A stretch of DNA of 64,000 nucleotides from an uncultured Gammaproteobacteria bacterium. Its GTDB lineage: Bacteria; Patescibacteriota; Patescibacteriia; CAZSQN01. Under the pieces are notes generated by a model that was not told where the DNA came from, made no database searches, and saw only the letters and a program-made list of their open reading frames with translations. Location: contig CAZSQN010000001.1 of assembly GCA_964609095.1 (NCBI GenBank), positions 130,354-194,353 of the forward strand, written 5' to 3'. Below, one piece after another: positions 4,729 through 61,954 of the stretch (the first letter of the stretch is position 1; every line of letters starts with the position of its first letter). Position numbers and translations under genes: made by a program.

Positions 4729-5100
4729 ATGGAAAATGAAATGAGCCAGAATGTATTGCAAGAAGCAAAGCCGGCTCCAACTAAAGACAAAGATATTGAA
4801 GACAACAAAATTATTGCCGCCATCTCCTATTTGGGCGTTCTGGCTTTTATTCCTTTGCTTTTGAAAAAGGATAGTCCGTTTGCCCAGCACCACGCCAGGC
4901 AGGGCCTCGCGCTTTTTATGGTCTGGATAGCGTGGGGAATAGTTGGTTTGTTTTTTTCACTGGCGCAGCTTTCCGCGCTTGTTAATTTGGGCTATTTGAC
5001 GCTTATCGTCATAATGATTATAGGAATTTCCAAGGCCTGGAAAGGCGAGCTCTGGCAGCTGCCTATAATCGGCGAGTACGCGAAAAAACTTAAATTTTGA
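4729..5100 (+). CDS. DUF4870-like small membrane protein
   Basis: 123 aa from ATG 4729 (ORF track start 4666 is over-extended); IAAISYLGVLAFIPLLL...FAQHHARQGLAL motif typical of DUF4870; TTGCGA-N17-TGGTATAAT promoter ends 7 nt before the ATG (near-leaderless). Confidence 0.5.
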   Translation: MENEMSQNVLQEAKPAPTKDKDIEDNKIIAAISYLGVLAFIPLLLKKDSPFAQHHARQGLALFMVWIAWGIVGLFFSLAQLSALVNLGYLTLIVIMIIGISKAWKGELWQLPIIGEYAKKLKF

Positions 5101-5209
5101 ACATAATGCGAATTTCGCGAATGAACGCGAATGCCGCAAATATGCAAATACGGTATTCGCACATTCGTAGATTGGCATAAAATTCATATTATTCGCGTTA
5201 TATTTTTTT

Positions 5210-6314
5210 ATGAAAGATCTTATTGCGAAATTAGAAACACTTAAGAGCCGCGTACTCCAAGGCAGGAGGTTACTTTGACCTGGATAAATTAAAAACAGAA
5301 ATCAAGGCCTTGGAATGGCAAATGAACCAGAAGGATTTTTGGAACGATACGCGTGTGGCCAAAGAGGTCGCGACCAAGCACTCGGAGCTTTCCACCGAAG
5401 TTTCCAATTGGGAAGAGATACAAAAAAAGGTTGAAGACCTTTTGGAATTCTGCCGCGAAGCGGAAGAAACCGGCGAGACATCCATCCGTCCGGAAGCGGA
5501 AAAACAATACGAAGAATTATTAAAGAACTTTGAGCATTTGGAGTTCTTTCTTTTATTTTCGGAAAAATACGACGAGGGTAATTGTATCGTATCAATCCAT
5601 GCCGGCACCGGGGGCACCGAGGCCATGGATTGGGCCGGAATGCTCGCGAGAATGATTTTGCGTTTTAGCGAACGTCAGGGGTTCCGCGCGGAAATTTTAG
5701 ACGAGCATCGCGGCGCCGAAGCTGGGTACAAAAGCATAACTATAATGTTTGAAGGCCGATATGCTTATGGCTACCTTAAATCGGAACACGGCGTGCATCG
5801 GCTGGTGCGCATTTCTCCTTTTGACGCGGAAAAAATGCGCCATACTTCTTTCGCGCTTATAGAAGCGCTGCCGGTTTTGGCTGAAGTTGAAGAAATTAAA
5901 ATAGACCCCAAGGACTTGCGCGTAGACACGTTTCTTTCTTCCGGACATGGAGGACAATCAGTGCAGACAACTTACTCGGCTGTGCGCGTCGTGCATCTTC
6001 CAACAGGCATTACCGTTTCCGTGCAAAATGAGCGAAGTCAGACGCAAAACAAAGAAACAGCATTAAAGATATTGCAGGCCAAACTTCATGCTTTGGCCCA
6101 AGCTGAGCGGGCTGAAGAAAAGCAAAAAATCCGCGGTGAATATACGAGCGCCGAGTGGGGGAACCAGGCGCGGTCTTATGTTCTGCATCCGTATAAATTG
6201 GTCAAAGACCATCGGACAAAATTTGAAACCTCCGATGCCGAATCTGTTTTGGAAGGAAAGTTGGAGGAGCTGGTGGAGAGTTATTTGAGATGGAAGAAGG
6301 TAAAATCAAAATAA
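5210..6314 (+). CDS. prfB: Peptide chain release factor 2 with programmed +1 ribosomal frameshift
   Basis: Frame 0: MKDLIAKLETLKSRVLQGRRLL then TGA at 5276-5278; internal SD-like AGGAGG followed by CTT TGA C; +1 frame continues DLDKLKTEIKALEWQMNQ... into the 5310..6314 ORF; GGQ and SPF (RF2-specific) motifs present. Confidence 0.9.
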
Positions 6315-20750: not shown

Positions 20751-20947
20751 TTATAGTATTTACTGCCGTAAATTAGAAAACTGTTTGCGGTGTCGACCCG
20801 GGCAACTTTTTGTTGCCCGCGAAGCCCTCGCCTGCTCGGACTTCGCCCACCGCGGCGATGTTCGTATTTAATCATACTTTTTAAAAAGTATCAACAAGAA
20901 TCGGTTGCGGGAGTTAGCTTAAAGCTGTAAGCTATATAGGAAATCAC

Positions 20948-21054
20948 ATTATTATAGTTGCGGCTGTTGTACAGACGCAAAAGCGAACGGCGGATGAGCG
21001 AAAGTGAGGGCGAATAATTGAGCCCGAACGGGAGCTAGTCCGGCAAGTGAGCTC
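20948..21054 (+). promoter_or_regulatory. Conserved structured leader motif, copy A (upstream of parA)
   Basis: ...tagttgc[hairpin]aaagcg..gagcgaaagtgaggg..cccgaacgggagc..gagctcATG shares boxes CGAAAGTGAGGG and CCCGAACGGGAGC with copies at 50697-50823 and 52785-52890. Confidence 0.6.
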
Positions 21055-21831
21055 ATGGCACACGTCATTGCGGTAGTTAACCAAAAAGGCGGAGTGGGCA
21101 AGACCACCACCGCCGTTAATCTTGGGGCATACCTTGCTTCGCTGGGAAGGTATGTGCTTTTGGTTGACCTTGATTCGCAGGCAAATGCCACAAGCGGCTT
21201 GGGCTGCGACCATCGCAATCTGGACAAGGGCGTATATGAAACAATAGTCGGTTTGGCGAATTTTCGCGACATTGTGAGGGAAACCGGCATTCCCGGGTTT
21301 CGTTTGGCTCCAGCCACTTCGGCTTTGGCCGGCGCCAATGTGGAATTGGTTAATCTTGCTGAACGCGAATTTCAGTTGCGCAACGCCATGTTGGAGATAA
21401 GGAACGATTATGATTTTATTTTGATTGACTGCCCGCCGTCATTGGGCGTGCTAACCATCAACGGTTTGGTGGCGGCTGACCGCGTGCTTATTCCGGTGCA
21501 GGCGGAGTATTTTGCGCTTGAAGGGTTGGGGCAGCTGCTTGAGACCATCGGTTTGGTAAAGCAAAATTTGCGTCCTGATTTGGAAATAATGGGCGCGGTC
21601 ATCACAATGTTTGAAGGACGTCTGCGGCTTTCTAACGATGTTTTGCAGGAATTGTACAAATATTTTCCCAATCAGATTTTCCGCTCCGTTGTTCCGCGAA
21701 GCGTGCGCTTGGCAGAGGCGCCGTCGCATGGCAAAACGATTATGAGCTACGACGGCGGCTCCAAAGGAGCCAAGGCGTATGAACGACTGGCGCGGGAAGT
21801 GGAGGAACACCTTCAAATTTCTAATTTTTAA
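21055..21831 (+). CDS. parA: Chromosome partitioning ATPase ParA/Soj
   Basis: KGGVGKTTTAVNL deviant Walker A; 258 aa. Confidence 0.9.
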   Translation: MAHVIAVVNQKGGVGKTTTAVNLGAYLASLGRYVLLVDLDSQANATSGLGCDHRNLDKGVYETIVGLANFRDIVRETGIPGFRLAPATSALAGANVELVNLAEREFQLRNAMLEIRNDYDFILIDCPPSLGVLTINGLVAADRVLIPVQAEYFALEGLGQLLETIGLVKQNLRPDLEIMGAVITMFEGRLRLSNDVLQELYKYFPNQIFRSVVPRSVRLAEAPSHGKTIMSYDGGSKGAKAYERLAREVEEHLQISNF

Positions 21832-50602: not shown

Positions 50603-50696
50603 AAGGCGATTGTCAGGCGGTGAATACTTTTTGTGTTCATCTTGTGGACTGTGCGCGTTGACACGGTTTTTTTAATTTAGGATAATCTAAAGGTCA

Positions 50697-50823
50697 TAAT
50701 TCTTTAATGTAGTTGCGTCCCGATAGTTTTCATCGGGATGCAAAGGAGAGCGAGACGCGCGCGAAAGAGAGGGCGAGCCCGATAAGGGAGAGCCCGAACG
50801 GGAGCGCGTGTCGGAAGCGAGCA
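50697..50823 (+). promoter_or_regulatory. Conserved structured leader motif, copy B (upstream of ftsZ)
   Basis: ataattctttaatgtagttgc + hairpin (tcccgat-agttttc-atcggga) + aaaggagagcgagacgcgcgcgaaagagaggg...cccgaacgggagcgcgtgtcggaagcgagcaATG. Confidence 0.65.
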
Positions 50824-52035
50824 ATGCCCGAAGTCAAACCGGAAATAGAAACGTTTGCAAAAATAAAAGTAGTCGGAGTCGGCGGCTCCGGCGGCTCTGC
50901 CGTAAATCGGATGGTTCAGGCAAAGATACGGGGAGTGGAATTTATTGCCTTAAACACGGATGTGCAAGCCCTGCATTATTCGCACGCGTCAACCAAGCTC
51001 CATATTGGAAAAACTGTAACGCGCGGGCTTGGCGCGGGAATGGACCCCGATCAGGGAAGGCGCGCGGCGGAAGAATCGCAGAACGAAATAAGAGACATAT
51101 TAAAAAGCGCGGATATGGTTTTTGTTACCTGCGGGCTTGGCGGCGGCACAGGGAGCGGCGCGGCTCCGATTGTGGCTGAAGTGGCTAAAGAGAACGGAGC
51201 CCTTGTCGTGGGAGTTGTCACCAAACCGTTTGCTTTTGAGGGAGCGCAAAGGCGCGAGATAGCGGAAAAAGCTCATGATTTGCTTCAAGACAGAGTTGAC
51301 GCGATTATCACCGTGCCCAACGACAGGGTCTTGCAAATTATTGATAAAAAAACAACCTTGCTTGAATCATTCCGCATTGTCGACGATGTTTTGCGCCAAG
51401 GCGTGCAGGGAATTTCGGAATTGATTACCGTTCCCGGTTTAATTAACGTTGACTTTGCCGATGTCAAGGCGATTCTGAAAGATTCCGGTTCGGCTCTGAT
51501 GGGCATTGGCCGCGGCACTGGCGAGAATCGCGCGGTTGAGGCGGCCAAAGCCGCCATTGCTTCGCCGTTGCTCGAGGTTTCTATTGACGGCGCAAAAGGA
51601 ATATTGTTTATCGTGACCGGCGGAACCAACATCGGCATGCATGAAGTTGCCGAAGCGGCAAAAATAGTCACCGGTTCATCCGACTCCAATGCCAAAGTTA
51701 TTTTCGGCACGGTGATTGATGAAAATATGAAGGAAGAAGTCAAGATTACCGTGGTGGCAACCGGTTTTGCCGACGGCAAGCCGGCAAACGCGGCGAGAAG
51801 TTTTGGCAATTATGTACCCACGGCGCTTCTTTCTAAAATGAGAAGCGACGCGAGCGCCGCCCCGGGGCTTTCTCTGGAGGGCTCCGCAAGCGTTGGTAAT
51901 GGGAATGGAAACGGCAATGGAAATGGGAAAAAACTTGAAATAAAAAAATCAATGAGCTCGCTTAAAACAGAATTGCCCAAAACCGAAGTCGAAGATCTTG
52001 AAATTCCGGCTTTTATAAGGAAGAAGATGCTTTAA
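50824..52035 (+). CDS. ftsZ: Cell division protein FtsZ
   Basis: GGGTGSG tubulin signature ([12 protein letters not shown]), start [21 protein letters not shown] at 50824 (ORF track 50713 start lies inside leader motif); GNGNGNGNGNG linker; C-terminal [11 protein letters not shown] FtsA-binding peptide. Confidence 0.93.
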
Positions 52036-52065: not shown

Positions 52066-52425
52066 ATGGAAAACGATAAGATAATGCAAGATATTCTTGA
52101 GACAGTTATCTTTATAAAAGATAACGCTGTAACTAAAGAGGAATTTGAAACCCGTTTAGGCGGGGTAGAGTCGCGCTTGGATGGCGTAGAAACCCGTTTA
52201 GGCGGGGTTGAACAGAGATTGACCAAAATTGAAGCAATCATGGTTACCAAGGATTATCTTGATGATAAACTTGCAGATTTGAAAGGCGATCTCATCGTTA
52301 AACAACGGAAGATAGAAGACAGGATTAGTGCGCTGGTTTCCATGTTAAGCAACCGTAAGGTTTTGGAGCAAACTGATGTAAAATTATTGACCGATCTTCG
52401 CGTTTTTCCTCATATTACTGATTAA
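52066..52425 (+). CDS. Coiled-coil hypothetical protein (possible division-associated)
   Basis: 119 aa; repeated TRLGGVESRLDGVETRLGGVEQRL heptad-like segments; immediately downstream of ftsZ. Confidence 0.45.
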   Translation: MENDKIMQDILETVIFIKDNAVTKEEFETRLGGVESRLDGVETRLGGVEQRLTKIEAIMVTKDYLDDKLADLKGDLIVKQRKIEDRISALVSMLSNRKVLEQTDVKLLTDLRVFPHITD

Positions 52426-52495
52426 AACCAGTTAGAAAGATTGTTTGTGCCAAAATCCCGTCCAATCGGGGTTTTTGTCTTTATTGCACAAGAGC

Positions 52496-52524
52496 TTGAC
52501 AATCGTGGCTTAAGATGCTATTAT
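52496..52524 (+). promoter_or_regulatory. Consensus sigma70-type promoter TTGACA-N17-TATTAT
   Basis: -35 TTGACA 52496-52501, 17-nt spacer, -10 TATTAT 52519-52524. Confidence 0.7.
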
Positions 52525-52530
52525 TAGCGC

Positions 52531-52771
52531 AATCCGGCACAGTCGCAGGACACAACCGGACAAGAGCTAAGATATAACCATGCGGTTATTATCTGATGCT
52601 CAAGCAATAGTGAATAGTAGCGTTGACTGGCCAAGACGCGCTTGTGTCGAGCCCGGAACATTAAGTTCCGATTGCCCCTCCTGGCTATGCACGCCGAATC
52701 CGCTAATTGCTAAAGGAAAGAAGCTCGGTCGTGTGTTTGGCCCCACCTTTGTTGTGGGGCCACTTTTTTTT
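52531..52771 (+). ncRNA. Candidate small non-coding RNA (about 240 nt), identity unknown
   Basis: Bracketed by the consensus promoter and a strong terminator (tggccccac-ctttgtt-gtggggcca + T8, 52738-52771); only ORF (52580..52801) runs through the terminator; internal stems (ccgg...ccgg, cggaac-atta-gttccg). Confidence 0.45.
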
Positions 52772-52784
52772 ATGTATAATAAAG

Positions 52785-52890
52785 ATAATTCTTTAATGTA
52801 GTTGCATTCGTTGTACGAATGCAAAGCGGAGCGAGACACTCGCGAAAGTGAGGGTAAAACCCGAACGGGAGCGAGTGTCGGAAGCGAGCA
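52785..52890 (+). promoter_or_regulatory. Conserved structured leader motif, copy C (upstream of nrdR)
   Basis: ataattctttaatgtagttgc + hairpin (gcattcg-ttgta-cgaatgc) + aaagcggagcgagacactcgcgaaagtgagggtaaaacccgaacgggagcgagtgtcggaagcgagcaATG. Confidence 0.65.
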
Positions 52891-53346
52891 ATGCACTGTC
52901 CGGTTTGCAACAATAGAGATACCAAAGTCGTAGACAGCCGCATGGGAGGCGACGGCGCGTCAATTAGAAGAAGAAGGGAATGCGAAAAGTGCGGTTTCAG
53001 ATTTTCCACGCTGGAAGAAGTGGAGATTTTTGACCTCGCCATCATTAAACGCGACGGCAGGCGCGAAGCATACAGGAGAGAGAAAATAGAGGCGGGATTG
53101 AAGCTGGCGCTCCAAAAGCGGCCGTACACATCAAGCGACTTTCAGAATTTGGTTGCCGCCATTGAGCGCGATATACAAAAGAAACGTAAAACGGAAATCA
53201 CCTCAAAGGAGATTGGAGAAATCGTTATGCACCGCCTTAAGACATTTGATAAAGTGGCTTATATCAGATTTGCCTCGGTTTACCGCTTGTTTGAAGACGT
53301 AAAAACATTTGAAAAAGAACTTAAAAAACTTAAACATAAAAAATAA
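52891..53346 (+). CDS. nrdR: Transcriptional repressor NrdR
   Basis: MHCPVCNN zinc ribbon plus ATP-cone; 151 aa. Confidence 0.92.
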   Translation: MHCPVCNNRDTKVVDSRMGGDGASIRRRRECEKCGFRFSTLEEVEIFDLAIIKRDGRREAYRREKIEAGLKLALQKRPYTSSDFQNLVAAIERDIQKKRKTEITSKEIGEIVMHRLKTFDKVAYIRFASVYRLFEDVKTFEKELKKLKHKK

Positions 53347-61618: not shown

Positions 61619-61774
61619 GCGCCGCAGGTGAAGAAAGATCTCTATAGCGGAGCAGGTAAACGAGTTAGAGAAAACCTTCATCAAGCGGTTATCGCATTAA
61701 GGAGAAAGAATTCATTGATAAGTTATAATCACAACAATTGAAAGGCCTGAATTTCTCGTGAAATGAGAAGTAGG

Positions 61775-61818
61775 CCATCCCTTCCTATCTTGGTAAAAAT
61801 AGGAAGGGATGGCTTTTT
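61775..61818 (+). terminator. Strong rho-independent terminator between rpsJ and rplC
   Basis: gccatcccttcctat-cttggtaaaa-ataggaagggatggc + T5. Confidence 0.75.
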
Positions 61819-61954
61819 GCTTAACTGGAAAAGTATGAATCCCGTTAGAAGCCGCGGTCGCTAGAGCATGTTTATACGGGATTCAAAGCGATTTGTTTGA
61901 ATAATAAATAACAAAATAATCAGCAGGAGCCGACCGCGACCTGCTTCTAATGGG

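Follow-up and report, generated by a model that had tools for sequence, protein, structure and literature searches.

The closest described counterparts of the locus considered here are the C-rich-loop, Hfq-independent small RNAs (sRNAs) of Firmicutes such as RsaE/RoxS, whose C-rich seeds pair with G-rich ribosome-binding regions. The window analysed in this study, a stretch of 64,000 nucleotides from one contig, contains between ftsZ and nrdR a candidate that resembles these RNAs in being a stand-alone promoter-terminator unit, in appearing non-coding, and in being predicted to form hairpins that expose an unpaired C-rich motif. It differs from them in length (~240 nt versus ~100 nt, with one C-rich motif), in lacking sequence or covariance model (CM) similarity to them, and in not being conserved beyond one species. 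6S RNA (RF00013 and relatives) offers a second comparison, sharing with the candidate a comparable size, a strong housekeeping-type promoter and a stable fold; the candidate, however, is predicted to be branched and multi-hairpin, with neither a closing stem nor a central bubble, and is absent even from sister species.

Searched against Rfam 15 at gathering score, the whole window yields tRNAs only. Relaxing the threshold to E<=10 on positions 52400-52900 adds four sub-threshold matches, to anti-hemB, UPD-PKc (18.4 bits, E=2.3), Yar_3 and IsrM. The alignment with the lowest E-value is that to anti-hemB (RF02837, Burkholderia RNA 7), at 17.6 bits (E=0.13 in the 501-nt search; gathering score 49.5). 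It spans 52668-52770 and draws its score mainly on the terminator and a CU-rich loop, the shared layout being a hairpin with a CU-rich loop that has a GC-rich terminator hairpin and U-tract on its 3' side. Membership was nevertheless rejected, as the score falls far under gathering, the alignment requires an insert of 29 nt and is good only over the generic terminator, and the family comes from an unrelated phylum. The body was also considered as a degenerate copy of a structured leader that is repeated in this genome (described below), but the CM built from five leader copies (model R1) finds nothing in 52496-52771. Judged by these models, the unit belongs to no Rfam family tested nor to the genome's own repeated leader family, and it fits the generic description of an orphan intergenic sRNA candidate; most likely it is either a young sRNA of one species or an inert insert, not a new RNA class. 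A literature search for sRNAs or 6S RNA in CPR or Uhrbacteria found nothing relevant. If transcribed and functional, the unit would thus represent an sRNA candidate in a group with none reported in the literature searched, and a clean example of RNA gene birth in which an insertion brings the promoter and an existing terminator gives the 3' end. At present it is an orphan confined to a single species, without comparative support.

Signals and predicted fold of the unit

Gene order around the unit is ftsA, ftsZ, orf119, the candidate unit, nrdR, orf104 and pyk (Table 1). A preliminary description of this DNA had proposed a TTGACA-N17-TATTAT promoter at the 5' end of the unit, a terminator made of a 9-bp GC-rich hairpin and T8 at its 3' end, and a position immediately 5' of the nrdR copy of the repeated leader, and the present scans bear out each of these proposals. 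The promoter scores 11/12 (TTGACA at 52496-52501, a 17-nt spacer and TATTAT at 52519-52524) and carries in addition TG at 52516-52517, giving an extended -10. Two matches of at least 11/12 occur on both strands of all 64 kb, the candidate's own and that of ftsZ at 50658. Mononucleotide shuffles produce a mean of 0.72 such matches per 64-kb window, from which simple arithmetic gives a chance expectation of ~0.0014 for an 11/12 match on one strand of 250 nt. The tRNA-Met operon, too, is headed by a promoter of the TTGACA-N17-TG type (18660-18632), so the organism appears to use this consensus.

The terminator ranks first in a terminator scan of the local 6 kb and is the second of two in the orf119-nrdR spacer (terminator 2). 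Its 9-bp stem (52738-52746 with 52754-52762) includes 7 G-C pairs and encloses a 7-nt loop, T8 follows at 52764-52771, and the hairpin reaches a pairing probability of 0.95 in the fold ensemble, with no competing fold predicted. Placed by these signals, the transcript would start at A52531, 7 nt past the -10, and end within T8. The unit therefore has, at the level of sequence only, the own promoter, intrinsic terminator and intergenic location that are generic to trans-acting sRNAs. This is subject to the caveat that the terminator, judging by related genomes, is inherited from the orf119/nrdR spacer, so that promoter and body are the sole new evidence for a separate gene.

Table 1. Positions of the predicted features discussed in the text, in window coordinates unless another locus is named.
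Feature	Position	Strand	Basis
Terminator 1 of orf119, left flank of the insertion	52452..52479	+	Terminator scan; conserved in L089, L097, L094
Lineage-specific inserted block, ~250 nt, fuzzy edges; holds promoter and body	~52476..52722	.	Alignment A2
Sigma-70-type promoter, extended -10	52496..52524	+	TTGACA, 17-nt spacer, TGc-TATTAT
Predicted transcript, ~235-241 nt	52531..52771	+	Inferred from promoter and terminator
Hairpin H1	52533..52560	+	UCCGG-CACA-GUC-GCAG-GAC-ACAA-CCGGA; mean pair probability 0.74-0.76
Hairpin H2	52564..52601	+	GAGC..AGAUAUAACC-AUGC-GGUUAUUAUCU..GCUC; mean pair probability 0.88-0.99
Small hairpin	52635-52648	+	Confident fold element
Hairpin CGGAAC-AUUAA-GUUCCG	52654..52670	+	Pair probability 1.0
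CCCUCC, predicted single-stranded, anti-Shine-Dalgarno-like; proposed pairing seed	52676..52681	+	Unpaired probability 0.82
Intrinsic terminator (terminator 2 of the orf119-nrdR spacer)	52738..52771	+	Terminator scan, fold ensemble
ATGTATAAT, conserved -10 region of the putative nrdR promoter	52772..52780	+	Invariant columns, alignment A2, 5 genomes
Repeated leader, nrdR copy, outside the candidate RNA	52785..52893	+	Covariance model
Repeated leader, ftsZ copy	50696-50826	+	Covariance model
Repeated leader, copy at ParA-like gene	20941-21056	+	Covariance model
Repeated leader, tRNA-Met copy	18357-18242	-	Covariance model
Repeated leader, copy before nrdR in L089	4427-4544 of L089		Covariance model

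The full unit is predicted to fold with a minimum free energy (MFE) of -83.7 kcal/mol (z -3.3 to -3.5) into a branched architecture, the first 72 nt of which are taken up by two local hairpins (H1 and H2, p 0.74-0.99). Competing folds are found in region 52603-52737, and the CCCUCC motif falls in the part covered by the weak anti-hemB alignment. Taken without the terminator, the body gives z values of -2.3 to -3.6, according to where it is taken to end. Since the background in the window, estimated from 70 windows of 207 nt, has a mean z of -0.83 (sd 1.4; 6 of the 70 at -3 or below), the body is, by this modelling, moderately and not exceptionally structured.

Origin of the insert and possible roles

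The exact orf119 and NrdR proteins of the window are present on contig JACOZF010000007.1 of a Candidatus Uhrbacteria MAG (GCA_016181485.1), and the closest NrdR loci come from Candidatus Uhrbacteria and other Patescibacteria MAGs. Among 92 homologues of orf119, the closest relatives outside the source population are in L094 (86% identity), L097 (77%), L096 (73%, over part of the length), L095 (70%) and L089 (68%). Aligning the locus revealed that a block holding the promoter and body of the unit is absent from L097, L094, L089 and L095, all of which keep its flanks. L097, L094 and L089 retain orf119, terminator 1, a spacer of 9-20 nt, terminator 2 with its T-tract, and ATGTATAAT; nrdR then follows in L097 and L089, while L094 and L095 are short contigs ending before any downstream gene. 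In L095, a terminator 2 almost identical to that of the window, including the preceding GCUCGG.CG..UGUUU, lies right after the orf stop. The homologous hairpin and T-tract are thus recognizable in L095, L097 and L094, and degraded in L089. This comparison indicates that terminator 2 and the nrdR promoter are ancestral, and that the promoter and body of the unit, which relatives with both flanks do not have, are a gain in the window's lineage.

Beyond the four syntenic loci, searches of 80 Uhrbacteria/Patescibacteria nrdR loci with nhmmer, blastn-short and tblastx recovered the flanks only and nothing like the body. The ftsZ-nrdR gap has a median of 84 nt in 72 related loci holding both genes, and the long gaps of some relatives, considered as positional analogues, were set aside because they hold ordinary ORFs or AT-rich spacer (e.g. 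L033). Synteny in related genomes, which the preliminary description had put forward as a check, therefore speaks against a conserved RNA at this position: none of the relatives examined has the body, and conserved sequence or structure, a generic trait of sRNAs, was not found in the 4 syntenic relatives and 80 further loci, leaving no conservation or covariation to show function. Within the source population, 7 contigs from five sequencing runs and the NCBI MAG assembly (one covering 413 of the 475 nt) are 100% identical and consequently carry no information on selection.

We tentatively favour the reading that the unit specifies a non-coding RNA of ~240 nt that is young, confined to this species and transcribed independently, and that may pair through its exposed CCCUCC. 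In the lineage of one Uhrbacteria species, ~250 bp without a detectable relative would have been inserted between the two tandem terminators of orf119, supplying a near-consensus extended -10 promoter. Transcription, which we infer from the promoter and terminator, would proceed from ~52531 through ~205 nt of new sequence and stop at the pre-existing terminator 2, yielding a discrete, multi-hairpin, non-coding product. If functional, this RNA would be expected to act in trans as a base-pairing riboregulator, with CCCUCC directed at G-rich ribosome-binding regions, a role suggested by the modelled accessibility of the motif and by analogy with RsaE/RoxS. A target scan over 62 crude start sites in the window, run with no control genome, gave a best duplex of -22.4 kcal/mol at gene start 13023 and is anecdotal; pairing between the unit and the repeated leader was not significant (z >= -1.9). 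Polymerases that initiate at the strong new promoter may in addition dampen or occlude the nrdR promoter in cis, because T8 ends 1 nt before ATGTATAAT, the putative nrdR -10, and the -35 position (TTGTGG) lies inside the 3' arm of terminator 2. The broader proposal that this is a newly born or acquired sRNA gene in CPR/Patescibacteria, and that either the RNA or its transcription into the nrdR promoter tunes the ftsZ/nrdR neighbourhood (division and dNTP supply), is improbable.

Nothing shows selection on the insert, and for this reason an inert insertion is nearly as likely as a functional sRNA. The block may be a scrap derived from foreign DNA or from rearrangement, for instance what remains of the 5' region of a lost gene or of a mobile element; its promoter-like site might or might not be active, and any transcript would be functionless. 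Its confinement to a single lineage and a single copy, with no homologue in any collection searched, is consistent with such a scrap, as is the modest structure signal of the body alone; moreover, with the terminator inherited, the promoter alone argues for a gene. The insert has no second copy in the 64-kb window or in a further 17.5 kb of the contig (~81 kb), ~0.9 Mb of related loci yielded none either, translated comparison with all fetched loci detected no similarity, and distant blastn searches of phage and plasmid collections returned nothing. Exact-pattern scans gave one 18-mer chance match in IMG/VR, inside a phage coding region, and five 19-20-mer chance matches in JGI metagenomes without extended similarity. 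What weighs against an inert scrap is the 11/12 promoter with TG, given how rarely 250 nt would contain one by chance, together with the lack of terminal inverted repeats, of a convincing target-site duplication and of a coding remnant. An 'AAGCT'-like direct repeat present at both edges is too short for interpretation. An origin by local tandem duplication was also rejected, as the 9-nt repeat ACAAGAGCT on which it would depend is not significant (its score was reached in 35 of 500 shuffles). The GC content of the insert is 50%, against 49% for the window.

It seems unlikely that the unit exists to control nrdR in cis, either as a second upstream start for nrdR-orf104-pyk with a long structured leader governed by termination or read-through, or by occluding the nrdR promoter. 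Such control would fit the location of the unit on the nrdR strand, the overlap of terminator 2 with the -35 position and the 1-nt distance from T8 to the -10 noted above, and inspection by eye suggests that a weak antiterminator could form between GGCCAAG (52628-52634) and UUUGGCC (52735-41). However, the terminator hairpin (probability 0.95) meets no competitor in the ensemble, no riboswitch or other cis-regulatory leader family in Rfam matches the unit, an aptamer without relatives anywhere would be improbable, and nrdR retains a conserved promoter and leader of its own. Because no fold competes with the terminator, most transcripts should end at T8, which makes a stand-alone RNA more plausible than a leader of the riboswitch kind. 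The suggestion in the preliminary description that read-through could couple the unit to nrdR is likewise unlikely, in view of the strong terminator without a predicted competitor and of the conserved promoter that nrdR keeps directly after the T-tract.

A divergent housekeeping RNA, whether 6S-like, SRP, RNase P or tmRNA, is very improbable. In principle, a 6S RNA could have the length of ~200-240 nt, the strong promoter and the stable fold seen here, and a 6S-like identity had been entertained in the preliminary description, with a predicted central bubble as its test. No 6S model matches at gathering score in the window or at E<=10 in 52400-52900, and the MFE, MEA and centroid structures, computed with and without the terminator, all give independent H1 and H2 at the 5' end followed by a branched 3' domain. 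With two local hairpins using up the first 72 nt and a branched architecture overall, the prediction is incompatible with the 6S rod, its closing stem and its central bubble, and the 6S-like proposal was dropped. The accompanying statement that the unit carries no RNase P, tmRNA or SRP signature held up in the same searches. RNase P RNA is not matched by Rfam models, including the conserved P4 strands, and the body of ~205 nt is shorter than known bacterial RNase P RNAs. ARAGORN finds 5 tRNAs in the window and nothing at the unit, where Rfam also detects no tmRNA, and SRP RNA models (RF00169/RF01854) find no match, the domain IV motif (GGAA tetraloop with AGCA/GGA loops) being absent from the sequence. 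An RNA of this kind would furthermore be unexpected as a single-species insertion missing from sister genomes at the locus.

With respect to coding capacity, the preliminary description had noted that the unit holds no credible ORF and that the only ORF of at least 60 codons reads through the terminator, and we reach the same view. That frame (ORF73, 52580..52801, 73 aa, ATG start) is the only one of this length on the + strand, and it crosses both the terminator hairpin and T8. A word-index search of 5.8e9 protein clusters returned no homologue of ORF73, and an exhaustive phmmer search of 1.84e9 representatives returned a single match, a repetitive 783-aa protein, which was judged spurious since the similarity is scattered over 8 stretches at E=1.6e-4; the conserved small-protein homologue named beforehand as a potential refutation was therefore not encountered in either collection. 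Pfam has no match for ORF73 or for the antisense ORF98 and ORF45. The hexamer coding score of ORF73 (-0.09) lies in the spurious-ORF range, compared with 0.34-0.48 for orf119, nrdR and orf104 and an average of 0.60 for 73-codon chunks of long genes. No Shine-Dalgarno sequence precedes ORF73, and no gene is called at the unit in any public assembly examined. The unit accordingly shows no protein-coding capacity, as is generic for sRNAs, and a small protein gene, whether ORF73 or one of the two antisense frames, is scarcely credible despite the ATG-initiated open frame of 73 codons, given the missing Shine-Dalgarno sequence, the passage of the frame across the terminator, and the failure of homology, codon-composition and gene-calling evidence alike.

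The repeated leader and other structured regions

The repeated leader looks a more remarkable object than the candidate unit. It is ~110-130 nt long, with the invariant blocks TAGTTGC..GCAAAG, GCGAAAGUGAGG, GAACGGGAGCG and GGAAGCGAGC, and compensatory changes affect 15 of the 27 predicted pairs (from 5 sequences only). Of the segments tested, the leader-containing one at 52700-52907 has the strongest fold z (-6.5), and the leader corresponds to no Rfam family. Model R1 recovers only the four copies in the window and the one in L089; searching ~80 other Uhrbacteria loci and a further 17.5 kb of the contig with it added none. The 3' end of the leader always falls within a few nt of the start of a product, this being the ATG of nrdR, of ftsZ (50824) and of the ParA-like gene (21055), and the +1 of the second tRNA-Met (18241). 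That one copy abuts a tRNA 5' end argues against a purely translational role. Possible identities of the leader are a processing element, a ribozyme or a structured repeat specific to this lineage.

The ftsZ copy also bears on the annotation of that gene. The longest ftsZ ORF begins at TTG 50713 (440 aa), whereas public calls begin at ATG 50824 (403 aa). This ATG comes 1 nt past the GCGAGC block with which the leader copy closes, so the 37 additional codons of the longer frame consist of leader sequence.

The ftsZ-nrdR spacer shows rapid evolution in this lineage, having gained orf119, the insert and the repeated structured leader. The gene orf119 (52066-52425, +), inserted between ftsZ and nrdR, encodes a coiled-coil protein of 119 aa that carries RLGGVE-type repeats. 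Its homologues are spread over Patescibacteria, with Kuenenbacteria and Kerfeldbacteria among the lineages named, and it reaches the threshold of no Pfam family. Because it also follows ftsZ in the closest relatives, orf119 may be a division-associated coiled-coil protein.

The overlapping terminator and promoter upstream of nrdR are kept in five genomes (window 52738-52780, L097 467-515, L094, L095 and L089). The invariant ATGTATA(A/C)T comes directly after the T-tract of terminator 2, and a -35 of TTGTGG or TTGCGG sits in the 3' arm of the terminator.

Further structured regions occur elsewhere in the window. The tRNA-Met operon (18660-18165, -) comprises a TTGACA-N17-TGaTAATAT promoter, a tRNA-Met at 18618-18546 and a second tRNA-Met at 18241-18165, separated by a spacer of ~300 nt that includes the leader copy; the fold z around 18500 is -3.8. 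A 336-nt gap (61619-61954, +) separates the genes for ribosomal proteins S10 and L3, which are usually adjacent. It has no Rfam match at gathering score and folds with a z of -4.8, the second strongest of the 70 windows tested. Finally, a 209-nt intergenic gap at 5101-5309 coincides with a fold z of about -4.0 for positions 5000-5207.
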